From the NCBI GenBank assembly GCA_002256025.1, contig NKIB01012883.1, positions 48,669-68,668 on the forward strand: 20,000 nt of DNA, written 5' to 3'. Source of the DNA: Asterionella formosa. Taxonomy: Eukaryota. The stretch's first letter is position 1. The number at the start of each line of letters is the position of its first letter. Positions 2,262-20,000 of this stretch are shown here, in pieces. Under the pieces are notes generated by a model, which was given only the letters and a program-made list of their open reading frames with translations, was not told where the DNA came from and made no database searches. Position numbers and translations under genes: made by a program.

Positions 2262-2754
2262 GTACCTGGTACTGTATTGAGATTGCAAAGCATGAACGAC
2301 ACATCATACCGTACCTGGTACCAGGTACCAGGTTCCCTGATGGTTTCACAGTGCCGGTACCTGGTACCGGCATTGTTAGCTACCGGTAATACCAGGTACC
2401 TGGTACCGGTACCAGGTACTGTATTTCAAATTCCGGTATCCCAGCCAGCATTCAGGAATGATTGATGTACCGGTACCGATAATAGACAATGATACCAGTA
2501 TCATTCAGCATGATACGACTGAGCTAACCGTAGCTAGTACCGGTACACCGGTCCTGGTACCAGTGTACAGTACATGGTACTAACAGGTATACCAAAGTAA
2601 ATCTAATTTACTATGATAGGTATCAGCAGGGTACGCTACCAGTATACCGTATGGTCTATTACAGTCATATTTTATATTACTAACGGTAGTCTACCGGTCT
2701 ACCGGTAGTCTACTCCGAGAACAAACACCGATAGTATCTACCGGCATACCGGTA
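2262..2754. repeat. GGTACC(W)/TACC(W)GGTA palindromic repeat cluster in the FMO/VPS53 divergent promoter region
   Basis: Perfect palindromes at 2311-2328 (GTACCTGGTACCAGGTAC) and 2396-2419 (24 bp), a 10-bp-arm inverted repeat at 2352-2372, and many TACCGGTA, TACCAGTA and TACCGTA units. Confidence 0.9.
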
Positions 2755-2781
2755 TAGTCATTGCATTTGCTTCCGTTGACC

Positions 2782-5607
2782 ATGTCGAACACGACTACCT
2801 CCCCTAATTCCCCGCACCCAAGCAGCGGCTTCAAAACTCCTGCTTCCATTGACCCCGACGCCTTGCTAGATAGCCTCGATGCCTTTTCTTCCAAACGCGC
2901 TGCCCTCGGGGCTTCCAAGGGCCAAGGCATGACCTTGCCCATGTCCTTGGATCCAGTCGACTTTCTCAATCGGCACTACACGACGGAAGCCGTGCTACAG
3001 AGCCAACTCGTGCCACTAAGAAACGCGGTAGAAGAACGTATGGAATCTTTGGAAGATAGGATTTCTCACGCACTTCAACGCCAAAGCGAAACTGCCGATG
3101 CCACCAAGCGGCATGTTCAAGACGCCAAGGCCAGCGTTGTGTCGCTCGAACGGCGGATTCGACTAGTACAGGAAAAGGCCAGCCAAAGTGAGCGGGCTGT
3201 ATTGGAAATAACAAAGGACATGAAAAGATTGGATTGCGCAAAGCGACATTTGCAGAGGACAATTACGACGCTGAAGAGATTGCACATGTTGGTTCACGCC
3301 GTGGAGCAATTGAGGTTGGCGTGCTTGTTGAAGCCCTTCCCAGATTACAGAAACGCATCTCATTTAGTCGATGCCACACGTCTGCTCTTGAAACATTTTG
3401 AAGCATATACGCTCAAGGTCGAACCCATGAGATTGTTGGAAATTAAAGTCATGGACTTGCAATTAGACTTGAAGAAGGGGATCACCAGAGGCTTTCGTGT
3501 CGTAGGATTTGGCATGGTTAAGGCGTTAGAAATGGAGGGGGCGCCAGTAATTAATGGCAAAGATGATAATGAAGTTATGTCTATCATGACAACACAAGTC
3601 ATGGCAGATGGAACACTGTTGGTAGATAGTCTTGGCCTCGATTCCAGAGAAGCGTTTTTGCAAACCATTTGTGACGACCATTTGCGGCCATATAAGACAC
3701 TCTTTCTACCGCAAGCCGCACCAAACAAAAAATCGAAACCTCAGCATTCCTTCAAAATTCAGGAGGAAATCGTCGAAGAAAAGCCTGCATATGCCCTCGA
3801 ACAAGTGGAGCGTCGGTTTGCTTGGTTCAGGCGCCTCTTGCGAGAAATGGACGAGAAGTTTCCCGGTGTCTTTCCTCATTATTGGAATTTTCAATACGTC
3901 TTAACTAAGCACTTCCTTGAGTTAACTCACAATCATCTACTGGATCTATTTCGTGGACCAACCAAGGATAAAGATAGCCAAAATGCAACACTATTATTGA
4001 AGGCCTTGCAAAAAACAATTTTGTTTGAAAAAGAAATGATGGCATGGTTGCAGCGTGATTATAAAACTGTCTTTTTGTTGCACAGTGCAGATGGAACAAG
4101 GGCGCCAGCTTCTCATGTGCAGGATGACGAGAGCTTGGAGTTTGATCTAGATGGCAAGGCCGTCGCTGCAGGCAGCGCAGAGGGGATTCGTATCAAGTAT
4201 GAACGACAAAAGCGAGATCAGCGAAAAGGCGAAAAAATTGCAGCTGCTGCACTAGACGAAGGACGCGCATCGGCCGAACAAGTACCAGTTGAAACGTTGG
4301 TTGGAATCGCATCTTCTGCCTTTGATGATTACATGGGGCCATATATTGCCCTGGAAGAACAGTCAATGGACGAACAACTCGTCGAATCATTGGGGGACGG
4401 AGCTGTTGATAGTCGCGGTGAACTCCCAGTCTTTACATCATCTACTTCCCTTTTCGTTTACATCAAGGGTAGCATTACACGTTGTACAGCAATGACCAAG
4501 GGAAAGGCATTCTTCTTGCTGTTTCAATCATTTCAAGATTCTCTCAACAAATATGCCCAAGTACTTTCTAGCAAGTTACCAGTTAATGGATCGGAGAAAC
4601 CCTCTGTTGCGGTAGGAGGTCTCAAGTTAACAGCATCGTCGTTTGGAAAACATGCAGAAAATTCCTCGACAATTATTCCTCCCGGCGGGGAAGTTACTGT
4701 CTGTCATGTAATTTCCACTTGTGAATACTGTGTTGATACGGTAGAAGCCCTGCAGGATTTGATTCGCGACACAATCGACGCCGAGTTTCAAGAAAGAATT
4801 GACGTGACGAATCAGCAGGATCATTTCCACGATGTCACTGCCAAGAGTATCCGCGTCCTGGTAGCTGGTTTGATGAACAGAAATGAAAGTGTCTTGAATA
4901 CAATGCAGAACACTAAGTGGGAAACGTTTGATGAAGTTGGAGAGGAGAGTTGGTATGTGAGATCTGTTCACAAGGAGACAGAACCGTTTGTGGCGCTTAT
5001 TCGAGGTTTACTCCCAGCCTCCTATTTTCGTTCCTTTTGCGATAAGTTTGCCATGGTGTTCACCACGACATACTACGAAACATTGATTCGCCTGAAGCGA
5101 ATCAGTGAACAAGGAAGTCAGCAGCTCTTGCTCGATGTATACAATATTAAGACATTGTTACTGAGGTTGCCAGTTATTGAAGCGACAAATCTGAAGTCAC
5201 CAAAGAAGGGGTCTGCTGGCTCTACTATTCCTCCAGCAATCTACACAAAGATGGTGACAAAACAGTTCAAGCGAATTGAGACACTCCTCAAATTGGTAGG
5301 GACTCCTCAACCGTTGTTGGTGGAACTGTTTAAAGTACAATGGGTAGGAGGTAGCGCACTGGATCTTCAAACAGTCATGTCTCTCAAGGGAATGAAACGA
5401 ACAGATATGGCAATCATGTTGGAGAAGCTTGGTCTCGATTCAGCCACAGCCATGAAAGGCGCCACTATTGGTGTTACTGGAAGTTCCATAGTATCTGAGC
5501 ATGTGGCGCAGTTGCGAGAACAGAGCTCAGATGTTGCCGCAAAGGTCAATTCAGATCTCAGCCAAATGCGACAGAAAGTGGACGATTTCAGGCGAGCTTT
5601 CCGCTAG
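2782..5607 (+). CDS. VPS53: Vacuolar protein sorting 53 (GARP/EARP tethering complex subunit), 941 aa, intronless
   Basis: Conserved Vps53 blocks: DPVDFLN, LDCAKRHLQRTITTLKRLHMLVHAVEQL, VERRFAWFRRLL, LLKALQKTILFEKEM, EYCVDT, YFRSFCDKF, QQLLLDVYNIKTLL. First ATG is at 2782. Confidence 0.93.
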   Translation: MSNTTTSPNSPHPSSGFKTPASIDPDALLDSLDAFSSKRAALGASKGQGMTLPMSLDPVDFLNRHYTTEAVLQSQLVPLRNAVEERMESLEDRISHALQRQSETADATKRHVQDAKASVVSLERRIRLVQEKASQSERAVLEITKDMKRLDCAKRHLQRTITTLKRLHMLVHAVEQLRLACLLKPFPDYRNASHLVDATRLLLKHFEAYTLKVEPMRLLEIKVMDLQLDLKKGITRGFRVVGFGMVKALEMEGAPVINGKDDNEVMSIMTTQVMADGTLLVDSLGLDSREAFLQTICDDHLRPYKTLFLPQAAPNKKSKPQHSFKIQEEIVEEKPAYALEQVERRFAWFRRLLREMDEKFPGVFPHYWNFQYVLTKHFLELTHNHLLDLFRGPTKDKDSQNATLLLKALQKTILFEKEMMAWLQRDYKTVFLLHSADGTRAPASHVQDDESLEFDLDGKAVAAGSAEGIRIKYERQKRDQRKGEKIAAAALDEGRASAEQVPVETLVGIASSAFDDYMGPYIALEEQSMDEQLVESLGDGAVDSRGELPVFTSSTSLFVYIKGSITRCTAMTKGKAFFLLFQSFQDSLNKYAQVLSSKLPVNGSEKPSVAVGGLKLTASSFGKHAENSSTIIPPGGEVTVCHVISTCEYCVDTVEALQDLIRDTIDAEFQERIDVTNQQDHFHDVTAKSIRVLVAGLMNRNESVLNTMQNTKWETFDEVGEESWYVRSVHKETEPFVALIRGLLPASYFRSFCDKFAMVFTTTYYETLIRLKRISEQGSQQLLLDVYNIKTLLLRLPVIEATNLKSPKKGSAGSTIPPAIYTKMVTKQFKRIETLLKLVGTPQPLLVELFKVQWVGGSALDLQTVMSLKGMKRTDMAIMLEKLGLDSATAMKGATIGVTGSSIVSEHVAQLREQSSDVAAKVNSDLSQMRQKVDDFRRAFR

Positions 5608-5649
5608 ATCTCCTCCAAAGTTCCCTGTATAGTTTTGGATATTCGTTTA

Positions 5650-6540
5650 GTCTTTTTTGCACTTGAAAATGCTATTAGATCTACCCATATTTATTTTCGT
5701 TCATGATGATTCAGCTGATCTGAAGCAACAAAAAGGCGAAGTTGACAATAAAGAAATGCTTCACAGTCTTGAATATGGGCTGCAAAATGAACCAAATTTT
5801 GGGACAACTAATGCATCCGTAGTCACTACGACTATGCATGGCATAAACTTGTCTGAAGGTATGTCTGAGCTTAGGTGTATGCCCTCATGACCACGAGCAA
5901 TGGAGCAAATAGTACACCAGTCCAAACTAGTTGGTTTTGGTCTAGGAATGATAAATTATTTCTGTATAGCTGATTCCAGAAGCCTTGTGTCAATTCATGC
6001 CTCTTAGCAGGAGGAAATTGGAGATATGGATCAGAGTTTTGGAGAAGTCTACAAGCTATATTTAGTGTCCCACAGTGTACGTGGACATATTCACCAATTA
6101 ACAACTGAATTCATAATCTCCTCTCACCCGTATTTCAAATCCTTTTTTATACCTACAAATTTTTTGCATTGATGACCCTGGTTGGTGTACCAACAAACTG
6201 TCATTGAAAAAATCCGCTGTGATTGAAAGTCCATCATAATTTTTAGCATTCTATGCAAGTATTTGTTGATGTACCGGGTATCAGCAGGCAGCAAGGCATC
6301 GAACCAGTTGTCCGTGATGCAGGAAATCAAAAGACACAGCAAGACAAGGAAGATGCACTTAAGAAGGTTGCACACTTGCCTGACCAGCATGCTCTTTTGT
6401 ACAAGGTGCAGATGATGCCATTGTCAGATCTTCTTCACTACATTTGCATCTTGAGAACTTTTCATCACAAATATTGCAAGACACAAAAGCTTAATGAAGT
6501 TTTTCTTTTATCAAGCTTTGATCAAAGTTAAAATCATGAA
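5650..6540 (+). pseudogene. Decayed coding or transposon-like remnant of unknown family
   Basis: CpG-poor (about 7 CG in 5881-6540 by hand count) with short broken ORFs. Peptide KKVAHLP at 6361-6381 recurs at 14061-14081. Boundaries approximate. Confidence 0.35.
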
Positions 6541-6679
6541 ACATATTCTGCTACATTTTTATACTGTAGTCCAATTGAAATACAGACGAAACAGAATGCC
6601 TGCTGGTATAACAGTTTGTATATATATATAGGAATAAGTATATAAACAATCCTAACAATCATCAGCATTGGCTTTTCTT

Positions 6680-6965
6680 GGTACCAGGTACCTGGTACGC
6701 ATGCTTATCGGTACTTGCCAACCGTATATGGTAGTTCCACTTGCTTGCGATCTGTTCTATATACCGGTATGTACCGTTCAGCATTCATCATAGTAGTTGG
6801 GGCCTTATATTATGTCATGTACAATGTGATTTAGTATGATTCAAAAAATCTACCCGTTACTATCGGCGCAGGGGCCCCGGAGTCGGCTTGTACCAGAATG
6901 TACTTCGGGCATGTTTACATTGGAGCTATTTGTTGAGCAAATAGCCGGTACTGGTGGTACCTGCT
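6680..6965. repeat. GGTACC(W) palindromic cluster upstream of nicastrin
   Basis: 18-bp palindrome GTACCAGGTACCTGGTAC at 6681-6698; TACCGGTA near 6762; CCGGTACTGGTGGTACC near 6945-6961. Confidence 0.8.
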
Positions 6966-7113
6966 ATCTGTTCTGGCGGATTAGAGAAACATTGCTCCCT
7001 TTATATCCATCCTGCTCTACATACATACCAGCTACCAGTATTGGCCCAACAACTCTACCTTGCACACAAGCTAAGTTTGTTCAACCGTTCAACTACCTCA
7101 AACCCCGAAGACA

Positions 7114-9390
7114 ATGCTGAAATCCCTTGCGGTCCTGCTGTCGTGTTTGCTTCATTCAACACGAATCCAAGCGAGTGGCACCCCTTCTCTCGACAAACCC
7201 TTTGAAACGAGCTTCTCTTACCTCTCGCATGTCCCGTGTGTGACCCTCTTTCATCGCAATGGTCAAATGGGATGTGGAACGACCGATCGAACATTGCAGA
7301 TAGGCAATCTGGAATATTACGCCAAGGAGGATTGGTCGACACCTACCGAAAAATACGTTGTGGTCTTGGAAGACTACTTGCTCAGCAACGAGCTTGTCCA
7401 GGAGTTTTTCAGCAATAACAAGAACGGATTGCTTCAAGGACTGTTGGTATTAAACTCGACGAAAGAAGGGGCTGCTATCTACTCTCCGGCAGTTCGGGGG
7501 CCGTCGGGCAAACGCACTCCTGCACAAAAGTTGAACTATGGAAATTCAGCTTACCAGTGGAATATCTACGGAGATGGACTATCGGAAACAGCGCTTCATG
7601 GGCTTCCCATGGCATATGTAACCCAAGTAGACGTCTCGGACACGCTCAGAACGGCGAGTCAGAACCCTTCAGATGATTTTTCCATCGTTGCAGAGTTTAA
7701 CTACTACATGGGGCCCGACGAAATGACATCAGACATATGCCTGAGTTGGGTCGACCAAGGCGACAACGTGTGGCGCCCCAAGTGTTTGCCATTGGGTGGG
7801 ACGTCTGTGTGGGCAACAGCTGGAACCGTTTCCTCGGCACGTCGCTTGGCGGCTGCAGCGAAAGAAGTCGTCATGGTAGCGACCAGTATTGATGCTAGTT
7901 CACTCTTTCATGATGCCTCCCCTGGGATTAATACGGCAGCAAGTAACATTCTTACATTACTCATGGCTGCCAAGTTGGTTGGAGGGATCGACACTTCCAC
8001 CATTGCAGACCTAAGCAAGAAAATTGCCTTTGGCTTTTTCCAAGGCGAAGCCTTCGGCTTTTTGGGATCAAGAGCCTTCTTGAACGATGTCATGGGCTTT
8101 GAGTGTGCAACTGACATGACTGTCCCTTCAGTTTGGAAAACGAGGAATACATCGCTTTGGCCTGAAATGGCATGTTTATATCCTCTTCGACCATCGCTTG
8201 AATTTCAAAAACTCGGTACAATCGCCGGCATGATTTCTGTCGATCAGGTTGCTGTCTTAGCGAATGCTCAGCAGTTCTATGTTCATCAAGACGCAACTGA
8301 TTTTGGTACATTTGTGTCAGAAGTACTCCAAGCTTCGTCATCAAATGACTACTCTGTATCGGCTATACAAATCCAAGCCGACGACGATCATTTTTCCAAT
8401 GCAGATGTGACAGTGCCGCCGACGCCACTCACTTCTCTCCTCTCGCTCACGGGCGGAGCAACTGGGGGTGCTGTCTTGACTGGATTTGGGAAGGCTTTTG
8501 CAGGATACTATCACTCGCACCGTGACACGACGTGGGATCAAATTATTGATTTGAATGCAATTGCAACAGCAGCAACTTTGATGGCTAGGGCAGCGGTAGC
8601 GGCGGCATATGACACTGGAAGTTTTGACAGTCAAACTGCGGCGGCATATGCTGTCAAAGTAGTCCCGGAGCTATCGTCAGACGATAGTACAATGAAGACT
8701 CTCAAAGACTGTTTATTTTACAACGGCGATTGTGATATGTTGCGCAATTATGCTAAAATGGAGCAAGCTAATGATAAATCATTGACTGGCATTGATTTGG
8801 GCATCGGTATTCCTCTGGGAAGTCCTCCCAACTACTACGTGAGTGTATTTGATCTTAATCATGGTCAACCCTTTGTGCAAGTTGGTGAGGCTTGGTATGG
8901 ATCATACACCGGAGGTGATTATGGCAAGAAAGAATCAGATACCTTTGGTATGCGGCCATCCTTGCTGGAAATGTCTATTAAGGGGATGCTCAATGACTTC
9001 CTGGGTCGGGTTACAAAAGTCACACTTACCAATTGCAAGACCACGAGTGATTGCTCGAGAATCGACTACTGTTCTGAGTCAGCTGCAATTTGTTCAGGAG
9101 GAAACGTTTGCGTTTGCACTCAGGCTCACTACCACATCGCCTTAGACGAGGCATTGCTGGCGGCCCCCAACAATGTCACTGGACGGTTTTTGGTGAATGG
9201 CAAAGATCAAGGAATTAGCGGGATGTACACAGAACCGAATTGGTCAAACGAAGTTGGTATTCGTGTGTATCGGGATGCCGAAAATTCGGCTGGTACGAAG
9301 ACGTTGATTTCTGGATTGTTCTTGGCAGGTTTCTGCGTGCTTTCAACTACGTTGATTAGATCCAAAATGGTCAAAGAAAAGCTTTACTAG
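7114..9390 (+). CDS. NCSTN: Nicastrin (gamma-secretase subunit), 758 aa, signal peptide and C-terminal TM helix
   Basis: PCVTLFHRNGQMGC; CLPLGGTSVWA; VVMVATSIDASSLFHDASPG; FQGEAFGFLGSRAFL (equivalent of the DYIGS motif); PPTPL; YYHSHRD; YTEPNW; single TM helix near the C-terminus. Confidence 0.92.
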   Translation: MLKSLAVLLSCLLHSTRIQASGTPSLDKPFETSFSYLSHVPCVTLFHRNGQMGCGTTDRTLQIGNLEYYAKEDWSTPTEKYVVVLEDYLLSNELVQEFFSNNKNGLLQGLLVLNSTKEGAAIYSPAVRGPSGKRTPAQKLNYGNSAYQWNIYGDGLSETALHGLPMAYVTQVDVSDTLRTASQNPSDDFSIVAEFNYYMGPDEMTSDICLSWVDQGDNVWRPKCLPLGGTSVWATAGTVSSARRLAAAAKEVVMVATSIDASSLFHDASPGINTAASNILTLLMAAKLVGGIDTSTIADLSKKIAFGFFQGEAFGFLGSRAFLNDVMGFECATDMTVPSVWKTRNTSLWPEMACLYPLRPSLEFQKLGTIAGMISVDQVAVLANAQQFYVHQDATDFGTFVSEVLQASSSNDYSVSAIQIQADDDHFSNADVTVPPTPLTSLLSLTGGATGGAVLTGFGKAFAGYYHSHRDTTWDQIIDLNAIATAATLMARAAVAAAYDTGSFDSQTAAAYAVKVVPELSSDDSTMKTLKDCLFYNGDCDMLRNYAKMEQANDKSLTGIDLGIGIPLGSPPNYYVSVFDLNHGQPFVQVGEAWYGSYTGGDYGKKESDTFGMRPSLLEMSIKGMLNDFLGRVTKVTLTNCKTTSDCSRIDYCSESAAICSGGNVCVCTQAHYHIALDEALLAAPNNVTGRFLVNGKDQGISGMYTEPNWSNEVGIRVYRDAENSAGTKTLISGLFLAGFCVLSTTLIRSKMVKEKLY

Positions 9391-9499
9391 ATGAATCTAG
9401 ATATTATGTAAGTTATGAGTACATCGGTTCGGTTTCATTGTGTTTGATTTGTTCATGAGGCCTCTTTTAGTAATCGCATGGTACCCCTTCGTCTACCAT

Positions 9500-10096
9500 T
9501 TAAAAAGAAAGGACTCTTTCCACAGCAACACACAGGTATTCTGAGCTAGAAACGTTTTGCAGAGCAGAAGCAGCATAGGCTGCACGCCGCTGCGCTGCAT
9601 TGGCGCACACCAGTTTGAAATCCGTCTGCAAAAGGCTATCCATGACCAATACAATGTGCACATGATGTTTTGGAAGTTCATTGGGAATATTCTTACAAAG
9701 TATGGGGTATAGAAAGAAGTTAAGATCCATTCTTGCCATGCAAGGATTGACCACTCCGATATGATGCCAAGAAGGTAGAGGGATGAAATTGGACGATGAA
9801 GGCATTACACAAAATTCATAAATGTAAACTGACTTTTCTCCATTTTTGGTTCGTCTCTTTCGTCGATTATTCATCAAGTACAAATCCCATGTTCCACGGC
9901 TATGCTCAAGAAAGTGCTGCTCCTTAACTTCAACGACGCGCTTGCCACTGTTTTTGCAACAACCCCAATGCGGTAAATTGAATTCTGGAAGAATGGCCTG
10001 GGCATGAATGATTCTGGCATTAATACCCAAGTGAGTGAGAGTGTGTCTTCCCGTGATGCGAGACCCCCAAAAATCAGTTCTGTGATAGAGCTTCAT
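9500..10096 (-). CDS. Hypothetical protein, 198 aa, no recognised domain
   Basis: Uninterrupted ORF filling the gap between nicastrin and DDX52. The ATG has a C/A-rich leader (catcaacacaaacaagATG) and a GGTACC cluster lies upstream, as for the recognised genes. Confidence 0.45.
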   Translation of the reverse strand: MKLYHRTDFWGSRITGRHTLTHLGINARIIHAQAILPEFNLPHWGCCKNSGKRVVEVKEQHFLEHSRGTWDLYLMNNRRKRRTKNGEKSVYIYEFCVMPSSSNFIPLPSWHHIGVVNPCMARMDLNFFLYPILCKNIPNELPKHHVHIVLVMDSLLQTDFKLVCANAAQRRAAYAASALQNVSSSEYLCVAVERVLSF

Positions 10097-10247
10097 CTTG
10101 TTTGTGTTGATGAATGAAATCAAAATGTGAGAATGTGAACGGATTGTTTGCGTCGTTGCAGAACACGTTCGTTTTTGCCACCGACATCAAAAACGATGTT
10201 TTAGATAATGCATTGCTTTCACACATGTTGTTGTTTCGACAATTACA

Positions 10248-10640
10248 ACCGGTAATCTCGATCGGGTACTACCTGGTACTGGTACTCGTACTGTACATAG
10301 ATCTATACACATATTTTTTACCGGTATGTACTGGTACTCTGGTCCCTGTACCTGTAGGGTACCGGTAGTCTACCAGGTACCTGGTACCAGTACCTACAAG
10401 TGGGACTTATTATGCGTTTATTTCGAACGCAATCTTTGGGCGTCTGGCCGCTACCCTGTAGAGTATCGCTATAACATATGTGCTGGTATTTTCATTTTCG
10501 AAATCTAAAAAACTTGCCGTTCCGTCGTACATCCAGTACCTGGTACAGAATACGGTTCATAGACGGGAATATAGCAGTATATCTATGTATGTAGTGTGGT
10601 GCTGGATTACCGTACAAGCACCATACCAGGTACCAGGTAC
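10248..10640. repeat. GGTACC(W) palindromic cluster in the orphan-ORF/DDX52 divergent promoter region
   Basis: TACCAGGTACCTGGTA palindrome at 10371-10386; further units across 10264-10395, 10536-10546 and 10624-10640. Confidence 0.88.
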
Positions 10641-10846
10641 AATGAGTAAAAGCAACGACGCACAGCCATCAGTCAATGGGGAAAAACTTTAGCCAGGATA
10701 ACCTTGAACAAATAAAGCAAACTAAAAATGTAAAGCGATTCCTATTTTATTTTGTAAGGAATATTCTTCACATCGACTCTGTCAACAAAAGACCACAAGG
10801 CAATCCTTCTTTACTCTGTCCCCTACTAAGGAAAAACAAGGATACG

Positions 10847-12661
10847 ATGGATGAGCTCTTTAACATGCTCTCGTCGTCGGCTCGACTGGACAAATCCAAG
10901 CGTCCCAAGCGTCAGCGCACATCATTAACTTCTGCCGTTGCCACCGCTTCCACCACAAAAGCACCAGACTCGAACGAAGAAGCCTCTCGAGATAGAACTG
11001 GCAAACGAGACACGTCAGAAGAGAAACAAGAGCAGGTTCATCGTGAAAGTATTGCAGCCTTTCGACGAAGCATGTTCATCAAACTCTCGGCCAATCACGG
11101 TGCCCCAGATCCCATTGCCAGTTTCAAGGAACTAGCTTGCCCGTCGTGGTGGAACAACGATAGCCTGTCATTCACCAACACTTATCGGACGATTTTGAAG
11201 AACATCGAATCGGGTAAATGGAAGGAGCCCACCAGTATTCAGATGCAGGCCATTCCGACGATTATGGCGCGAGAGGACTTTATTGGCTGTGCTCCTACTG
11301 GCTCTGGTAAGAGTGGAGCCTTTATTCTTCCCGCCTTGTTACTGACCAGTGTGAGTGATGTCATTTTCTATGGAACATCTCCTACAGAAACTAGTAATGT
11401 TACGAAGAAGAGCAAAAAGAAGAAAACTGCATCGTCACCACCTTCACAACAAGGCCATGTAAGGTCGGTCCTTTTAGCGCCTTCCCGTGAACTTGCCGCG
11501 CAGCTTCATCGTGAAGTGGAGCGTCTTGGAATTGGTAAGCAAGGTGGGTTGCACTCTTTATTGCTTGAACGATCCAATGCATCCAACGTCATTTCTGGGT
11601 CAGCTGGTGGTAAACGAGGATTAGATGTGCTAGTCTCAACACCACTTCGCCTTGTTGATGCAATTGAAAAAGGTATGTCTTTATCTGGTGTTAGATTGAT
11701 AGTACTAGATGAGGCTGATAGACTCTTGGATGCTACGGATCAAAAGTTTCAAGACGCTCGAGATGCCAAAGAAGGACAGAATAAGGACGAAACAGGAGAT
11801 GACAACGATGAAGATGACACTCCAGCACAGCAATCTGGATCCACCAGAACAAAAACGTTCTTGGCCCAAATGGATGTTATCTTTAATGCTCTTCCCGCCA
11901 CTGCCACCAGAGCTCTATTTTCCGCCACAGTAACGCCCAGTGTACGTGAGTTATCAGAGAGCATTCTCCGCAATCCTGTGGATGTCACCGTTGCTTCAGG
12001 TAAAACTGGTGGTGCAAACACTGACATAGAACAAGAGTTGACCTTTGTTGGAAGAGAAGAAGGCAAACTGCTAGCTATTAGACAATTGGTTGCTCGTGGC
12101 GAGCTAAAACCTCCAGTCATTGTATTTGTGCAATCCCAAGAACGAGCGCAAGCACTCTTTGCAGAGTTGTTATATGATGGCATTCATGTGGATGTAATTC
12201 ATGCCGGTCGATCTCGTTTGGCTCGAGACAATGCTGTCGCCAAGTTTCGCAAGGGTGAAACATGGGTCTTGATATGCACAGATGTCGTATCTCGTGGTGT
12301 TGATTTTCGTGCGGTCAATATGGTGATTAATTATGATTTGCCATCGTCTGGAATTACCTATGTGCACCGCATTGGACGAACTGGCCGTGCAGGACGAAAG
12401 GGAAAAGCAATCACTCTTTTCACTGAAGCTGACTTTGACAATTTGAGAACAATTGCCAATGTTATGAAACAGAGCGGATGTGAAGTGCCAGAGTGGATGT
12501 TAACTCTGAAACAGACAAGGACAAAGAAGGGAGCTCCAGAACGACCAAGAGCTACAATTGATACAACCCCACTCTATGACAAAATTAAGAAAAGGAATCG
12601 AATGCAGAGCATTCAAAAAAGTAAGAAACAAAAGACCGAACATGGAAGTAAACAATCCTAA
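10847..12661 (+). CDS. DDX52: DEAD-box RNA helicase DDX52/Rok1 (rRNA processing), 604 aa
   Basis: Q motif EPTSIQMQAIP; APTGSGKS; APSRELA; DEAD; FSAT; HRIGRTGRAG. Rok1-type blocks IEQELTFVGREEGKLLAIRQL, PPVIVFVQSQERA and IANVMKQSGCEVPEWM. Start placed at MDELFNMLSSSA (ATG 10847). Confidence 0.93.
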   Translation: MDELFNMLSSSARLDKSKRPKRQRTSLTSAVATASTTKAPDSNEEASRDRTGKRDTSEEKQEQVHRESIAAFRRSMFIKLSANHGAPDPIASFKELACPSWWNNDSLSFTNTYRTILKNIESGKWKEPTSIQMQAIPTIMAREDFIGCAPTGSGKSGAFILPALLLTSVSDVIFYGTSPTETSNVTKKSKKKKTASSPPSQQGHVRSVLLAPSRELAAQLHREVERLGIGKQGGLHSLLLERSNASNVISGSAGGKRGLDVLVSTPLRLVDAIEKGMSLSGVRLIVLDEADRLLDATDQKFQDARDAKEGQNKDETGDDNDEDDTPAQQSGSTRTKTFLAQMDVIFNALPATATRALFSATVTPSVRELSESILRNPVDVTVASGKTGGANTDIEQELTFVGREEGKLLAIRQLVARGELKPPVIVFVQSQERAQALFAELLYDGIHVDVIHAGRSRLARDNAVAKFRKGETWVLICTDVVSRGVDFRAVNMVINYDLPSSGITYVHRIGRTGRAGRKGKAITLFTEADFDNLRTIANVMKQSGCEVPEWMLTLKQTRTKKGAPERPRATIDTTPLYDKIKKRNRMQSIQKSKKQKTEHGSKQS

Positions 12662-12719
12662 AGAACAATTGATAAGTTGGACGAAGTTTTTCTGACATGC
12701 CTAGTTCCAATCATGTGAT

Positions 12720-14200
12720 GGCAATTGGATGCTTTATTTATATTTAATTATAGTTATGTTTATACCAGTATGAATTATTTTGTTCTACTGGTAGAAGCAA
12801 CCTGACCAATACAACACACTCTTGGGGCAAAAAACCTGTGCCATCCCTCATCTTCGAAACAAGATTTTTAATTGCGGGATTGATAGCTGACCCTTTGTGC
12901 CTACTCAACGTTCCTTCTATTTAAAAATAACGAATATTGTTGGGGCAAAAACATCCATTTTCGGGGATTTCAGAAACATTACATATGAATTTGCAATTCA
13001 TTAAATACCCTGCACTACTGGCATGATACAAGAGATAAACAAGTTAAAGGGGCGAGCTGCACTAGCTTCAGAATCAACGCAGTAGAATCATGTGCTAACA
13101 AGTCATCTCAAGACTATTTAAGTAGCTAGTTTAATCTTTTGCTGTGGGGTTTAATGCAGCCCTCTCATCTCTATATACATTAACAGATGCTTTAACAGCA
13201 TTCGTCAATCCATCTTTGTCTAATTTCATAATGTTCAAAGTGAAATACTTCAGCAAATGATCAAGGAAGCTGCTTGTTTGTCCAAACAGTTATCATATCC
13301 TTGTTTTGTATGGCTGTGTCAACCAGTGGAGTTGTATGAGATAAATGTGCAACCTGCTACTGCTCCAACGATGTTGATGCTTCAACCTTTCTTGTCTCCT
13401 TATCCTGGCCTCGACTTTCTTCGAAATTGACCTAGCTTGCCGTCTTTGCCCTGTCATTGTCTCCACAAATCTCACCAAGAACAGTCATGCCTTCATTGCA
13501 GAGCTGTTGCTTTATTGACATTTGAAACTTTTTGTAGTCGTTGTCTATATAAATATGCCCCCCCCCGATTCAAGATTTGATACAAAGAAATTCATAAATG
13601 GAGGAAACAAAAATATTGTATAATCCTATGGAATTTCTACACAGGGATGTACCGCAACAATGTCAAATTCAATTGCTGATTGTTGTTGCCAGAAACATTC
13701 ACTAACCCTCTTCTCCATCCTTGAATCTCTGACAGAATACTGCGTTTGAGATGGCATGGGGAGAGTATTTGAATTATATCAATTTCGAGTTATGAAAAGG
13801 AATTTGGGCAGCCATGCAACCAACGATGATGTAACAGCAATAATCAGGTAGGTGCTGGCCAGCAAGCAAGGAAAGGTTTGGAGCCTCCAGGATCTCCTTC
13901 ATTCTTGTAGAAGTGCTATCAAAATAATATTGGAATTTTCACATGGATGATCAACAGGGACAATGAAGAATGGCATCATATTCAACAATTGTTGGCCAAT
14001 CAAATGACAATCAACCTGAAAAACTCACTGGACTGAAGAGCATCTAGCTAGAAGCATTCCAAAAAAGTAGCTCATCTGCCTCAAATTGACGAGCACTTGT
14101 GGGTATTAGATCTCTCTCCATTTTAGCTTTAACAGTTCATCATCTGATGCAGGTTGCCATAATTACATAAAAAACGATGATGGTAGGCTAGTCGAGCTAT
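12720..14200. pseudogene. AT-rich, CpG-poor decayed sequence, probably old transposon remnants
   Basis: About 20 CG in 1.5 kb by hand count; broken reading frames; KKVAHLP at 14061-14081 (+); 12-bp direct repeat TTGGGGCAAAAA at 12822-12833 and 12940-12951. Boundaries approximate. Confidence 0.3.
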
Positions 14201-14237
14201 GCAAGGGGTCTCGATATTTCTACTATGACTGTAATAA

Positions 14238-14842
14238 TATCGAATAATTTTTTTTTTCACAATATAATTTTAAAGTGCATTTAAGCTGTCTGAAATTGCA
14301 CTTGTGCCCATCATAGGACACGAGGGTCCTTCTATCGACTCCTTTTACACTTTTACAAACCCCTGGTCTTCTTCCATATCCTTGTTGCCACGCCAGAGCT
14401 CTATTTCCTATTTCCTCCCTCTGCGTCTGATACCATGCGTTGAAAGCTAAGTCGATTGTTTCTTCTCACTGTCTCTTGTCGATCAAATTATGTCTTCGAA
14501 TCCCCACCTCTACCAGTAATAAAAATAGAGTCCTATCCTCTCCCTGATTTGGTGTGTGTCATATTTCTATCGCTGGCTTTTCTGGTTATCCACCTGTTTG
14601 AGTTGTTTTGTGTGTTGCTCCTCTGCTGAGTTGCCATATAATTCGCTATTGCGGAAAATCCAACTCGCTGTCCCCATATGCCACAAACTTGTAATTAATC
14701 TTTCACTCCACCCATCTGCTTGGGCTATATCGGTGTGTTTTCTTTCTTGGCAATACGCCATACTTGCCAAACTCCAATTTTAAGCACTCGCCCTCGAAAG
14801 GCCTGATGCCATCCAATGTCCATCTGAAAAGTATCGAATAAT
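14238..14842 (-). mobile_element. 5'-truncated non-LTR retrotransposon (LINE) copy with poly(A) tail and 11-bp target-site duplication
   Basis: Direct repeat TATCGAATAAT at 14238-14248 and 14832-14842. T-run at 14248-14257 is poly(A) on the minus strand. Frameshifted minus-strand peptide QMDIGWHQAFRGRV...W...WSERLITSLWHMGTASWIFRNSELYG...EDRTLF matches my recollection of the C-terminal Q-x-x-IGW...W-x-x-RN pattern of diatom (Ambal-like) LINE ORFs. Confidence 0.85.
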
Positions 14843-14976
14843 ATTTTACTACAAATTTAGAAAAAGATGGACGAGCTAAATTGATTTGCATCCTTTATTA
14901 AGAACGAGACTTCTAGTACACGTTCCTAGTAGGGATATACCAGAGCAAAAAATATGATCTGCACCCGAATCCCTGC

Positions 14977-15443
14977 GTACCGGTACTCAGTAAAAAGTAT
15001 TCGTTTGATGGGGGGGTCCAGAATACTGAAGTTGTGGAGTTTCCCTTACCTCCCTGATGTTGCCTTGAGGATTGTTTGTCTATTGCTGCAGCCATGCCAT
15101 AGTTAGTATAGTACCTGGTACCCAGTACCAGGTACCAGTAGAACATCAAACATAGATGGATGGATTCATAGTACCACCTGGTACCTCGTACCTACCAGGT
15201 ACAACGAGCAAGGGGAGCGAAAATCATGATGGCTTTCCGGTTACTCTTCATTCTTTATTATATATGCCAGTATACCGGGCCCTGTATATGTATTGCCTAT
15301 TTATGTGATGTATGATACATACCGGGACCAGGTACCAGGTACCGTACCAGCAAGTTGCTCAAATAAACAATATAGGATAAAGATAGCTAAAGTATTAGTT
15401 TTAGCACAATCATTACCGTACCGCAACTTGCAGGTACCAGGTA
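14977..15443. repeat. GGTACC(W) palindromic cluster upstream of the + strand K+ channel
   Basis: GTACCGGTAC at 14977-14986; arrays at 15111-15140, 15171-15201, 15321-15350 and 15431-15443. Confidence 0.85.
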
Positions 15444-15592
15444 GCACTATGTAATAATAGTCTCCTACGATCAACTCAAATCTGCAACTTGTTTATTTTG
15501 ATGCACTCATTCAGTGTTATGTCGCACTCCAGAACTCAAAGCGATCCAAAAACTTGCGAAAAAAGAAGTCCTCGCACCAGATTTCAATCACA

Positions 15593-16840
15593 ATGATTAT
15601 TCTGAGTGGCATTGTCAAGCTCTCGTCCTATCTGAGAAGGAAAGCATATGATTCTTTAATTCATGTTTCGAGGAGTTTTGGACACGTCGACGAGTTCGAA
15701 TACGAAGAGTCCCATTCTAGCGACAGGTCTTGCCTCCAACGCTCAACCAACGCTAGCATCGATCCAATTATCGATCAAACAACGCATTCTCTGACCAAAG
15801 ATTTCCATGGTTTCGCCTTTCAACATTCTAGTGTCGCCATCAAGCTGTCGATGTTCTACTTCTTCACATTTCTGGTCTTGAACGTTATTTCCTTTAGTTT
15901 CCTCTTTGAGAAATGGCCTATTATCGACAGTCTTTACTTTGCTGTGGTAACTTTTACAACCGTCGGGTACGGAGATCTGGCGCCAAGCACTCAAGGAGGA
16001 CGCCTATTCACGGCTTTAGTCGGCTTGTATGGTATTATTATTTTGGGGATTTTCCTCGGAATCATCGGTCATACTCTTGGGGAAATGCAAAAAAGTGCTG
16101 TGAAAGATATTGAAACCCAGACATCGAGGCGAGTTATGGCCATGTTTAGTGAGCCGGGTGACGACGAGACGGGCTTGCGGGCCAAGCCAACAACTTTGTA
16201 CGAGGAACGAGGAATAATTAGGCATGATGTCCTTGAAGTGTTAAAGTTAGAAGCTCCCATTCTGGTGCTGATTTTCTTGATTTGTCTCCTCATTGGATGG
16301 TGGGAAGGCTGGACTTTCATTGACTCCCTGTATTTCTGTGTTATTTCATTTTCATCCGTTGGATATGGCGACCTATCTCCCCAAAGCAGCGCGATGCGAG
16401 CTTTGCTCGTTTTCTTTCTTCCCCTTGCGGTTGCTGTCTTTGGAGAAACGTTGGTAAGAATTGCCAACCTTTACATTTTACGAAAGTACAAAATAGCTGA
16501 GCACAAATTCTTGACAAGGAGTATTACACTTTGTGACTTGGAAATCATGGACGAAGACCAGAACGGAGAAGTTTCCAAAGAAGAATTTCTGAAATTCATG
16601 TTGTTGACACTGCAAAAAGTGGATAAAGATACATTGGATGAAATCTGTGGAGTCTTTGACGGTCTCGATGTGAGGCAAAAGGGAAGGATAGGAAAAGAGG
16701 ACTTGGTCGCCATCTCCAGAAGGCAACGAAAGAAGGCACTTCATCAACTTGAGCGGGTGACCGCTGAGACGTCACTCATCGAGAATTTCAAGGCTTTCCG
16801 AAGTTCACGGGGACTTTCGGGAAGTGATGGCTGTGTATAG
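15593..16840 (+). CDS. Two-pore-domain K+ channel with C-terminal EF-hands (plant TPK-like architecture), 415 aa, intronless
   Basis: Four TM segments; pore loops DSLYFAVVTFTTVGYGD and DSLYFCVISFSSVGYGD; EF-hand DEDQNGEVSKEE plus a degenerate second loop DVRQKGRIGKED. First ATG is at 15593. Confidence 0.9.
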   Translation: MIILSGIVKLSSYLRRKAYDSLIHVSRSFGHVDEFEYEESHSSDRSCLQRSTNASIDPIIDQTTHSLTKDFHGFAFQHSSVAIKLSMFYFFTFLVLNVISFSFLFEKWPIIDSLYFAVVTFTTVGYGDLAPSTQGGRLFTALVGLYGIIILGIFLGIIGHTLGEMQKSAVKDIETQTSRRVMAMFSEPGDDETGLRAKPTTLYEERGIIRHDVLEVLKLEAPILVLIFLICLLIGWWEGWTFIDSLYFCVISFSSVGYGDLSPQSSAMRALLVFFLPLAVAVFGETLVRIANLYILRKYKIAEHKFLTRSITLCDLEIMDEDQNGEVSKEEFLKFMLLTLQKVDKDTLDEICGVFDGLDVRQKGRIGKEDLVAISRRQRKKALHQLERVTAETSLIENFKAFRSSRGLSGSDGCV

Positions 16841-17358
16841 TAGTTCAATGTATTTCAAAGCCCAATTTGATTTCTTTGATGTTGGTAGGAAGCATTATTT
16901 CGAAATAATTTAGTAGTACATTAGAACAGCTTTGTTTTGGCGGGAGAATCCCAGAGATTTTCACCGAGGAGGTATTTGAAACATTTTAGGGTCTGCAATT
17001 GGTAGAAATAAGAAGTTTACAATAATGCATTGGTGAGGCTATAGGTATCGGCAATATGAATCAAACATTTCTTGTACTTCTCCCACGTTTCGAGAAGCCC
17101 AAAAAAGGATATTACATATTAACTATAATCACACAATCCAACGTTTTGCACCTTTTGATAACAACAACCCAAAACTACACTATACCCTGGTCATTGCACC
17201 TGTTTGCATTTCCACATTGAATATACGACTAAATGGAATCGAATTCGTCGACGCTGACACCAAGAATCCATTGTTTTCCAACTCAGTTCTCGCGATCATT
17301 CCCAAATAATTTGACGAAATTGCATTACTCAATGCTGGTATACGCATTCTTTCTTTTG

Positions 17359-18679
17359 TCACTTGGACCTAAACCACGATTTTGTTTTGTTCCCCACCTA
17401 AAATTGAACGGAGTACAAAGAAAAAATTACAAACAGTCATGAGCAAAAGCAGTCAAACCAGCATAAGAAATAGTGATTCCATGTCTCTCACCTGCTTAAC
17501 TAGATCCGCTTTATCAAGCGAGTTACTCTTGTCTCTGTCAAGCTTGTCGAAGATTTCTCGAATTTGGTCAATGTCTGCTTTCTCGATTTTCTGCATGGCA
17601 ACAAGCATGAAGGCCGCGAATTCTCCCCTACATGTGATAAAACACTACAGTAAGTGACGCGAATAAAGAAAAATTCCATAAATCTCCTCCCTCAAATGTA
17701 GTGCGACTTACCACGTCACCTTTCCGTCCTTATTCAAGTCCATACGTTCAATGTCGGTAAGTGTCAATTGTCGGTTCAAAAATGCTTTTTCGGCAATCGC
17801 CGTCTGGCGCGCCATGTAAGCTCCAGCTATTCTCCCTAAAACTTCGCAAAAGACTGATACAGCAATAGGTGTAAATACTATCGCTACCATTCTCATTTCG
17901 TTTGATTGAGGACTAACATCACCATATCCAACTGTCGACGAGGTAATGACCCCGTAGTAAATGGATGAAATCACTGACCATCCTTCGTAGTGGCCAATGC
18001 CGAGCGAGATAAGGGCAATCAAAATAACGATTGGAGCTTCCAAAACAATAATATCTCTCATCGTTTCAAAAAGAGACTTTTCATTCGGTCTGAGTAGCGT
18101 TGGTGTCTCGTCATGAGGTTCATCTCCAAACATTTGCAACACTCGTTCTTGCGCTTTTGCCTTGGCTGCTTCAACATAAGCATTGTGCTTTTCCACAATA
18201 GTCTGTCCAACCAGTCCTACCAGCAATCCAAGAATGACCACTCCATATAGTGCAAAGACGCACGTGAATGCTCTACTGCTGTCATTAGAGGGGTATGGAT
18301 CACCATAGCCAACTGTGGTAAAAGTGACGCAGGCAAAGTAAATGCTGTCCACCACGGGCCACTGTTCAAATACAAATGAATATGCCACGACCGCGACAAG
18401 GAAGTACATGGCAAGATTGAGGGCACACATGATATACATGGATTTAGAATGCATAAAGTCTGTAAAGTCCTGTGTCAAGGTGGGCGTGCCCCGTCCAGGG
18501 ATGGTCCGATAGTCTCGTGACACTTGCAGAGGTGTTTCCTCTGAGGAGCAATTCGTGTCATCCAGCATGGGGAGCGGCTCTCGCGTGCGAAATGATGCGG
18601 CATTTCTTCGTCGTATACTTTTGATGCAATGATCAAAAGGCACAGTCACGATTCTGATGAAGAATCCGGAAAGCGACAT
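17359..18679 (-). CDS. Two-pore-domain K+ channel with EF-hands (TPK-like), spliced. Exons 18679-17712, 17627-17492, 17397-17359; about 380 aa
   Basis: Pores TFTTVGYGD and TSSTVGYGD. Removing intron 17711-17628 restores DLNKDGKVTWGEFAAFMLVAMQKIEKADIDQIREIFDKLDRDKSNSLDKADL, collinear with the + strand paralog. The last exon is less certain. Confidence 0.88.
17398..17491 (-). other. Probable intron 2 of the minus-strand K+ channel (94 nt, phase 0)
   Basis: Donor CAG|GTGAGA, T-rich interior, acceptor TTTTAG|G. Splicing gives the tail VGNKTKSWFRSK*. Confidence 0.6.
17628..17711 (-). other. Spliceosomal intron 1 of the minus-strand K+ channel (84 nt, phase 2)
   Basis: Donor TG|GTAAGT and acceptor TAG|G. 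Splicing removes an in-frame TAA and completes EF-hand 1. Confidence 0.88.
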
Positions 18680-18902
18680 TTGGCTGGGCTCTGCGGATTG
18701 GCTGGTTCTCCTTTTCTGTTCAATGGATTGCTTCGTTTCCTTGTTGTTTTAGTTGTAATTTTGGTTCACAATTGTTCGGTGATTCAGAGAAGTAATAATA
18801 AGGAAGGATGTGGCCTAAACGTGGTGTGCGGTGTGCGAGGTAACAAGAACACAATTACCGCTATTTCATGTCATTGGCAATGATGAGTAGACATGATCAG
18901 AT

Positions 18903-18935
18903 TACCTGGTAACCAGGTACCTGGTACCTGGTACC
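18903..18935. repeat. GGTACC(W) tandem array upstream of the minus-strand K+ channel
   Basis: TACCTGGTAACCAGGTACCTGGTACCTGGTACC, about 225 bp upstream of ATG 18679. Confidence 0.88.
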
Positions 18936-20000
18936 ACTTAAAAACTGTAAGCCACCGCTACGGCGACTTTTGAACTGTAAGCCACCGCTAAACAGAGTAA
19001 ACGCACGGTTTGAACTTAGTTTACAAGATACGCTATTTATTGTCACGAACGAGTTGTTCAGATTTATATAGTGAGTAAATACTTCCGTTACTTGTATTGT
19101 TGCATTGTGTACATTGTTAATTAGGTATTATCGCCCAAAGGTTGCTGTCGACGTGAAATTGCGAAAATTGGATATTTTCACGTTTACTCGATTGAGCAAG
19201 CATCACCTTTTATATACGTATACAGCTATGAGAATATTCCTCCGCTAGAAAACTAATTTAGTATCCTCTAAAATTTATTTAATATGGCTACGACGGCATT
19301 GCACTTTCGCTCGTGCGCCATAATAAAGAGATAAATTCAGTAATGGAAAACGTCAAATAGGAATTCCTGGTGCGCCCGAATTATGAGTACAAAAATTAAA
19401 TGCAAACACACAACAATCACCCATCACCCATCACAACACCAACACCATGACCTCGAAAGCGCCTCGACAAGGCAATGCCTTGCCTCGAAAGAAATTGTCT
19501 CCTGAAGAGTTGGTCAGTGTTCAGATTTGTCTTAACAATGTGATTAGGGAGCTATAAGCTAAGAAGGCTAACAATGGTGGAAAAATGCCTTATGGTGCTA
19601 TTTCTAGGACAGTATCAGCTAAGCAATGCATTTTCCCTTGGATATCTGTTAACCAAGTGAAGAATGAACTAAAACAAAGTGCTAAACTAGAAGTTAAGTC
19701 TAGTACTACTAGTATGTATACTACTTCTGGTTCGTCCCTCTTTCAGCCATCAACTGCAACCATGGTGTCTACATTGACACCTGACCATTGTGGCCCTACT
19801 AAACCCCAACTCTTGAATGCTGATGGCAGCTTTGCCTTGTTATTTCCCAGTAATCTCATTCATAATTCATATAAAATTGTCGAGGAGGAAGAAGATGACA
19901 ACAATGAAGGTGTGAGTGAGCATTATGATAGTCAGTTTACAATGATGGGCACTTTGGCATATGAAACTGGAAACAATGGTGTGCTTACCTGGGGAAGTTT
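18934..20000 (+). mobile_element. Probable left end of a pogo/Tc1-mariner-like DNA transposon, continuing past the window
   Basis: Starts after TA (18932-18933). An 18-bp exact direct repeat AACTGTAAGCCACCGCTA at 18943-18960 and 18973-18990 resembles transposase-binding repeats inside a TIR. An AT-rich leader and a disrupted, CpG-poor ORF follow. The right TIR is not visible. Confidence 0.55.
19447..20000 (+). pseudogene. Disrupted ORF, probable transposase N-terminus (absent from the ORF track)
   Basis: ATG 19447 MTSKAPRQGNALPRKK..., one in-frame TAA at 19555-19557, then open to the window end (NNGGKMPYGAISRTVSAKQCIFPWISVNQVKN...). The NGG-x-x-PYG...FPW pattern resembles my recollection of diatom pogo-like transposase N-termini. 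Only 2 CG in 19501-20000. Confidence 0.5.

Follow-up and report, generated by a model that had tools for sequence, protein, structure and literature searches.

Why should short palindromes gather upstream of the genes along a stretch of the genome of the diatom Asterionella formosa? The stretch, called the window throughout (20,000 nt; positions 48669–68668 of contig C12883, extending to the contig end, in a 68.4-Mb assembly), holds five clusters of the words TACCWGGTA and GGTACC (Table 1), which a preliminary description based on the letters alone had taken for either a promoter signature or the product of a mutational process confined to open chromatin. The words are probably excision scars of TA-targeting, pogo-like transposons whose target is renewed by the scars themselves, which become stacked into arrays.

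Palindrome clusters are a genome-wide feature

GGTACC occurred 26 times in the window against a mean of 2.30 in shuffled sequence (none of 200 shuffles reached that number), and TACCWGGTA 23 times against an expected 0.10. The five clusters lay where the preliminary description had put them, with nearly the number of GGTACC sites that it had counted by eye (~25), and both its single isolated site and its perfect palindromes of 16–24 bp were recovered (16, 18 and 24 bp; 2311–2328, 2390–2405, 2396–2419, 6681–6698 and 10371–10386). As it had reported for GGTACC, coding sequences (CDSs) were free of the motif: none of GGTACC, TACCWGGTA and TACCGGTA was present in the 11,851 CDS bases of the window, a zero that for GGTACC alone is weak (1–2 expected). 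What it had missed were a second word, TACCGGTA, equally common and different in behavior, and two transposons within clusters 4 and 5.

The whole assembly contained 26,886 copies of TACCWGGTA (reversed-word control, 902), 28,528 of TACCGGTA (control, 1,718) and 2,186 triple arrays (control, 0), so that the two words, referred to below as CCWGG and CCGG units, together amount to ~55,000 across the genome. In a survey of 330 kb, every over-represented word was TA-bounded, with enrichments of 57-fold for CCGG, 44-fold for CCWGG, 45-fold for CCAGGG/CCCTGG, 16-fold for CCGGG/CCCGG and 6-fold for CCAG/CTGG. The clusters of the window are mixed chains in which neighboring units share their TAs; a chain in cluster 1 (2390–2423), for instance, comprises five units of four kinds. 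Sequencing runs in which the DNA occurs come from algal and freshwater samples. Contigs assembled from independent DNA runs crossed several clusters (run X6, 1880–2881; run X2, 2415–9391, 15131–15356 and 15461–18926), and the clusters are therefore, as far as tested, not an artifact of the present assembly. Over cluster 1, the contigs of runs X6 and X8 showed 7-letter gaps.

The clusters are a real, genome-wide and 5′-biased feature. Positions were surveyed in 475 kb on nine long contigs (six chosen for a triple array, two for a copy of the transposon family A described below, and the window's own), with long open reading frames (ORFs), including transposon ORFs and inner exons, counted as genes. 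Unit density was highest, at 6.6 per kb, 300–400 bp ahead of the ATG, in a peak zone from –200 to –700, and fell to 0.05 per kb inside ORFs (7 in 136 kb). They lay within 600 bp upstream of 55 of the 89 ORFs of at least 250 amino acids and within 600 bp downstream of 17 of 87 (p=1e-8, upstream vs. downstream), and occurred in 13 of 14 divergent spacers, compared with 14 of 23 tandem and 4 of 12 convergent ones. Density is thus far from uniform, in keeping with the earlier proposal; a cluster 5′ of every gene, as also proposed, is found in the window but not genome-wide. RNA contigs, which cannot supply transcription starts, begin at or barely past the clusters, a weak hint in the same direction.

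The words repeat the ends of resident transposons

The letters of the units are the first bases of both ends in resident elements that duplicate a TA, CCAGGG being the unmatched word. Family A, a pogo-like transposon with terminal inverted repeats (TIRs) of 26–29 bp and ends CCA..TGG, is present as whole copies of 730–760 bp and 2.1–3.7 kb; its terminal repeat has 206 exact copies in the assembly, and 44 of 49 sampled ends were flanked by TA. Its decayed ORFs resemble DDE_1 transposases in the atlas (27 of 30 hits; top score, 0.95), and five ORF pieces gave no Pfam match at E 0.01 (one sub-threshold hit, Integrase_1). Family B is a DDE_1 element of 2.46 kb with a DDE_1 Pfam match, ends CCG..CGG and 85 ends in the assembly; its CCC-ended variant (4 flanks) fits the rarer word CCCGG/CCGGG. 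Family C is a miniature inverted-repeat transposable element (MITE) of ~96–100 bp outside the window, with 655 exact TA-flanked ends, and carried one CCA and one CCT end (CCA..AGG) in each of the eight complete copies that the first 100 listed ends included; an autonomous partner of family C was not found. The exact resident ends of all families number fewer than 1,000.

Shared TA duplication, short terminal repeats, a DDE_1-type transposase (a putative one in family A) and many short non-autonomous copies liken these families to pogo-like DDE_1 transposons and their MITEs; a point of difference is that family A has decayed ORFs without a Pfam match. Two elements had inserted in the TA adjoining another element's end, with one TA shared (L125:1100-1140; L117:656-2232).

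The transposons of families A and C share the 5′ bias of the units. At sites with an ORF within 900 bp (41 A ends and 10 C ends examined), the nearest ORF read away from 13 of 21 A ends, 4 of 6 C ends, 153 of 223 CCWGG flanks and 163 of 281 CCGG flanks, compared with 149 of 386 random non-ORF TAs (A and C ends combined, 17/27 vs. random TA, p=0.015).

Several further observations concern the resident elements. Locus L117:656-2232 also holds another CCA..TGG MITE (843 bp), and additional DDE_1 elements have CAG..CTG or asymmetric CCG..TGG ends (L142:299-2626; L164:70-2400). TA-CWG-TA words are mildly enriched and 5′-biased. A repeat of ~120 bp with telomere-like motifs sits inside family A copies (L099:1363-1483; L114:253-373). 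Viral contigs contained neither a triple array nor a relative of family A.

Units are gained at TA in repeat copies

Filled and empty versions of the same site were sought by an all-against-all comparison of 822 kb of assembly DNA. Among 26 distinct 6-bp indels, seven converted TA to TA-CCGG-TA (TACCGGTA), none of them by tandem duplication; the partner had TA in six of the seven, and flanks matched perfectly in three. CTGG, CCGGG, CAG, TGG and CTAG were each gained once among repeat copies. A second pass for CCWGG returned five candidates, of which one was irrelevant, two were compatible with duplication and two stood at a plain TA. Filled and empty copies thus document the scar origin of CCGG directly, with excision as the presumed event behind them, and that of CCWGG only thinly.

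Two further sets of candidates were discounted: a relaxed search for CCWGG, which yielded mostly self-matches within arrays, and a CCGG insertion inside family C (6 of 21 rows), which differs from a tandem duplication by one mismatch and could go back to one event that the copies inherited. Other common TA-bounded gains were TA-G/C-TA (15 non-duplications) and TA-GC-TA (11), possibly scars of other families; TAGCTA lacks a 5′ bias.

Target preference and decay of the units

GG preceded the TA at 27 of 44 family A ends, collected via the terminal repeat alone, and at 3 of 33 family B ends (Fisher p=4e-6; 40 of the 85 B ends were sampled, 33 of which follow TA). An earlier set of A flanks (30 flanks, from the best 40 of 314 candidates) had been dropped, every flank ending in GTA because the query began with those letters. 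The same contrast separates the two words, with GG before TA in 60% of 410 CCWGG flanks vs. 11% of 500 CCGG flanks (background TA, 7%). At sites without an adjacent unit, 12 of 29 A ends had GG and 21 of 29 had G, and the corresponding shares of CCWGG flanks were 38% and 71%; over eight positions, the base profiles of A ends and CCWGG flanks are nearly identical. Family C is intermediate (11/31; 6/26 without an adjacent unit). Flank profiles accordingly pair family A with CCWGG, leave family B and CCGG alike without a GG preference, and match family C only in part.

An adjacent unit accompanied 35% of CCWGG but 7% of CCGG units. When insertion was simulated over 2–3 rounds in random 500-bp sequences, the family A preference gave 30–47% adjacency and 48–60% GG, compared with 2–5% adjacency without it.

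Both words had more one-mismatch variants than expected at nearly every position. Those of TACCGGTA were dominated by CpG transitions (139 vs. 21 expected; other C-to-T change, 30 vs. 12), and CCAG/CTGG may consequently have arisen by deamination of CCGG or be a scar of its own. CCWGG showed no excess of C-to-T change over transversions, which argues against the earlier suggestion that it is a methylation target. Overall, the decay spectrum of the units looks neutral.

A probable origin as excision scars with a self-renewing target

In the model that we favor, a pogo-like element of the IS630-Tc1-mariner group inserts at a TA and duplicates it, and excision followed by end-joining would leave the first bases of both ends between two TAs. 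Tc1/mariner chemistry produces 3-base overhangs at excision. Given a presumed 3-base stagger, two CCG ends would pair over CG to give CCGG, the A-T pairing of a CCA with a CCT end would yield CCAGG or, in the other orientation, CCTGG, two CCA ends would give either product via an A-A mismatch and mismatch repair, and CCC plus CCG ends would give CCCGG. CCA-ended elements favor (A/G)G^TA^C(C/T) targets; since a CCWGG scar within GG-TA-CC creates two new GGTACC targets, an array could grow by repeat visits, probably aided by slippage, while CCGG scars would remain mostly single because their source family lacks the GG preference. Scars would lie upstream of genes because elements insert there, presumably into open chromatin, and because frameshifting scars may be purged from coding DNA. 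The mutational process once suggested for promoter-side DNA comes near to this model, the process being transposon insertion and excision and its tie to open chromatin a presumption.

The chemistry is ordinary; scale and feedback are unusual. According to the accessible part of one report, Tc1/mariner excision leaves a few end bases between duplicated TAs after end-joining, and the Sleeping Beauty footprint, from a symmetric end, may have either central base (PMC2874221). Reported footprints measure 2–4 bp, and those of ZB 0–3 bp (PMC7913693, in part). The present units resemble the footprints of Tc1, Sleeping Beauty and ZB in consisting of element-end bases between duplicated TAs (PMC2874221), but those are single events of 2–4 bp (PMC7913693), whereas units here are 4 and 5 bp long, number ~55,000 and are stacked. 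CCGG fits the known range; CCWGG, at 5 bp, would need two 3-base ends with a 1-base overlap. ZB and Sleeping Beauty prefer AT-rich palindromic targets, whereas family A prefers GG-TA-CC, recreated by its own scar. The P element, Mutator and Tf1 are promoter-seeking, and we know of no promoter-seeking transposon that makes promoter-wide repeat arrays from its own scars. The likeness to such elements lies in an insertion bias toward transcription starts, near which Tol2 and piggyBac also insert (PMC7913693, in part). Our literature search, outside which most subscription papers and preprint supplements lay, returned no description of such arrays or of arrays built from footprints.

Several observations weigh against the model. 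Among the words, CCAGGG/CCCTGG (34 sites) has no matching element ends, and TA-bounded CCATGG was absent from 545 kb. Among the gains, the two CCAGG cases at a plain TA are compound and lie in older copies, one in a single row of 62 aligned family A rows and the other at a site where two other copies carry TA-GC-TA; they make thin filled/empty evidence, and the two 7-bp CCWGG gains are explicable by tandem duplication. In none of 17 copies of family B was an internal perfect GGTACC filled, element and scar alleles were never seen at one and the same locus, and no excision was observed. Family C, whose ends would join most neatly, prefers GG less strongly, and family A needs the A-A mismatch join to make CCWGG. 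The simulation demonstrates sufficiency, not proof, and is partly circular, because the preference was measured on possibly decayed arrays. Homogeneous runs of 3–4 units exist, so slippage likely contributes. For the 5′ bias of the elements, numbers are small for family A alone (13/21, p=0.04), and family B offered one usable end. Finally, with exact resident ends numbering fewer than 1,000, the ~55,000 units imply very heavy transposon traffic.

Occurrence in other organisms

The DEAD-box helicase gene of the window served for a survey of orthologous loci (37 of 80 metagenome loci, hand-picked, 47–78% identity; 200 kb, 35.9 kb of it non-ORF). At the non-ORF rates of this genome, about 19 CCWGG and 26 CCGG units were expected, and 0 and 7 were found. 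In the 600 bp upstream of the orthologues, which are distant (50–63% protein identity), CCWGG occurred in 0 of 14 regions and CCGG in 1 of 14; at that distance, the words are not conserved in orthologous promoters. From these sequences, the CCWGG units appear to be lineage-specific.

The CCWGG word has surfaced in the promoters of another diatom. In 500-bp promoters of Fistulifera solaris, CCWGGTA, MCCTGGTA, TACHRGTA and RGTACY show a bias toward one subgenome (p to 7e-99), CGGTACY is also listed, and the accessible portion assigns no factor to any of them (PMC5935921, Table S4). TABASTA is biased to the other subgenome, and homoeologues with TABASTA are higher expressed (PMC5935921, in part). 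The authors read these as possible regulatory motifs, with no transposon origin proposed in the accessible portion (PMC5935921). A universal factor would account for such patchy, subgenome-specific occurrence less well than past transposon activity.

Alternative explanations

The units might be scars by origin that were later co-opted, with a host factor or chromatin effect using them and sharpening the 5′ peak. All evidence for scar origin applies here as well, and the higher expression of TABASTA-carrying homoeologues in F. solaris points the same way (PMC5935921, in part). The 5′ bias is 69% for units vs. 63% for elements, a difference that is not significant (p=0.66), and the neutral look of the decay spectrum speaks against use by the host. 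We regard co-option as rather doubtful; it is an add-on to scar origin, not its alternative.

Alternatively, CCGG alone could be a transposon scar, with CCWGG arrays growing from a quasi-palindromic GGTACCW seed in open DNA solely through replication slippage or switches of template. Of 205 CCWGG units, 73 could indeed be plain tandem duplicates of their flanks, the homogeneous runs and the two duplication-compatible gains would follow naturally, and contigs of runs X2 and X8 carry a TACCAGG insertion at 10370, possibly derived from other loci. The other 132 units cannot be duplicates, however, and in 25 of 80 sites of the form xGGTACC-W-GGTACCy, W agreed with neither flank. Mixed chains are frequent as well, with 28 neighboring units the same and 21 mixed (p=0.39 vs. 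1:1). Slippage alone is also at odds with the two CCAGG gains at a plain TA, and offers no reason for the unit to coincide with the ends of two resident families and to have the flank profile of family A. We hold this explanation to be improbable.

A general promoter factor, a dimer binding TACC/GGTA half-sites that slippage multiplied and selection retained, with transposons homing to them, would account for the sharp peak upstream of the ATG, the contrast between divergent and convergent spacers, the starts of RNA contigs next to clusters and the recurrence of the word in F. solaris promoters (PMC5935921, in part). Units also arise within transposon bodies, however, where no promoter selection is expected; the flanks of the two words differ, each matching another transposon family; one-mismatch variants exceed expectation at nearly every position; an upstream unit is missing from 34 of 89 ORFs; and the orthologous upstream regions are nearly devoid of units. 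Of the promoter signature envisaged at first, the genome-wide 5′ bias stands, and the dimeric factor has become very unlikely.

HIP1 of cyanobacteria is a short palindrome that is common in coding DNA and not TA-bounded. The present words share with it a frequency far above chance genome-wide for one short palindrome, and differ in avoiding ORFs, arising as insertions and being TA-bounded. A comparable methylation- or repair-driven word, maintained by a CCWGG or GTAC methyltransferase system, would suit a highly iterated palindrome holding CCWGG and GTAC and the CpG transitions of TACCGGTA, but is scarcely credible given whole insertions with TA duplication, near absence from ORFs and a C-to-T rate at CCWGG no higher than that of transversions.

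Implications of the proposed excision-scar origin

Excision footprints usually pass for rare by-products that escape notice. In this genome, they appear to make up the most over-represented words, with ~55,000 sites concentrated 5′ of genes. If the excision-scar model is true, repeat arrays could originate in a new way, by insertion and excision at a self-made target in place of slippage; the record of transposition would far exceed the resident copy number; motif discovery in diatom promoters could return transposon scars; and a native transposon with a promoter-side GG-TA-CC preference would be predicted, a potential tagging tool. Tentatively, one may go further: a pogo family with a self-recreating target may have put tens of thousands of palindromes 5′ of genes, so that diatom promoters are in part written by transposons and their commonest motifs, including those of F. 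solaris, form a ledger of lineage-specific traffic, some of it co-opted to tune expression.

Other features of the window

Table 1. Clusters, transposons and genes in the window.
Feature	Positions	Strand	Details
Cluster 1	2263–2754		Divergent spacer of FMO-like and Vps53 genes; 7 TA-CCWGG-TA, 6 TA-CCGG-TA, other TA-bounded words
Cluster 2	6680–6961		5′ of nicastrin; weak: 2 CCWGG, 1 CCGG, one lone GGTACC
Cluster 3	10248–10639		Spacer of orphan ORF and DEAD-box helicase; 6 CCWGG, 2 CCGG
Cluster 4	14977–15443		5′ of ion channel 1; 5 CCWGG, 1 CCGG; encloses MITE
Cluster 5	18903–18933		5′ of ion channel 2; 3 CCWGG; last TA (18932–18933) is the family A target duplication
Isolated GGTACC	9480–9485		Convergent spacer; outside any unit
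Family C MITE	15347–15434		88 bp; ends CCAG..CAGG; TA on both sides (15345–15346, 15435–15436)
Family A pogo-like TIR transposon, left part	18934–20000	+	Runs past contig end; terminal repeat 18934–18960, subterminal repeat 18966–18990, ORF fragment 19585–19998
Flavin monooxygenase-like (FMO-like) gene	409–2196	-	Start codon inferred; RNA contig 227–2210
Vps53 gene	2782–5607	+	Start codon inferred; RNA contig 2694–5884
Nicastrin gene	7114–9390	+	RNA contig 7000–9391
Orphan 207-codon ORF	9500–10123	-	Putative; no Pfam match; one RNA contig 9800–10055, depth 2.7
DEAD-box helicase gene	10847–12661	+	Presumably DDX52/ROK1-like; RNA contig 10723–12768
Ion channel gene 1	15554–16840	+	Two Ion_trans_2 domains; true start uncertain; RNA contig 15488–16740
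Ion channel gene 2	17400–18679	-	Probably 3′ introns; ends approximate

The family A copy at the end of the window is probably polymorphic between populations. A contig of 8,736 bases from run X2 departs from the window at 18926 and continues for 5,270 unbroken bases, which suggests that this run lacks the element at 18926–18934. A loose RNA end at 18927 was ruled out as the empty allele of the site, as it maps to contig C13925.

The two ion channel genes (15554–18679) are paralogous, of the two-pore type, with EF-hand-like tails, and are arranged tail to tail. At the nicastrin stop codon (9384–9391), contigs of runs X2 and X6 carry ~34 extra bases and an 8-base repeat that the window allele lacks, and those of runs X8 and X9 likewise depart from the window at 9391. 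The AT-rich stretch of 2.2 kb between 12700 and 14900, which contains neither long ORFs nor units, varies more between populations and has weak inverted repeats; it may be a decayed element.

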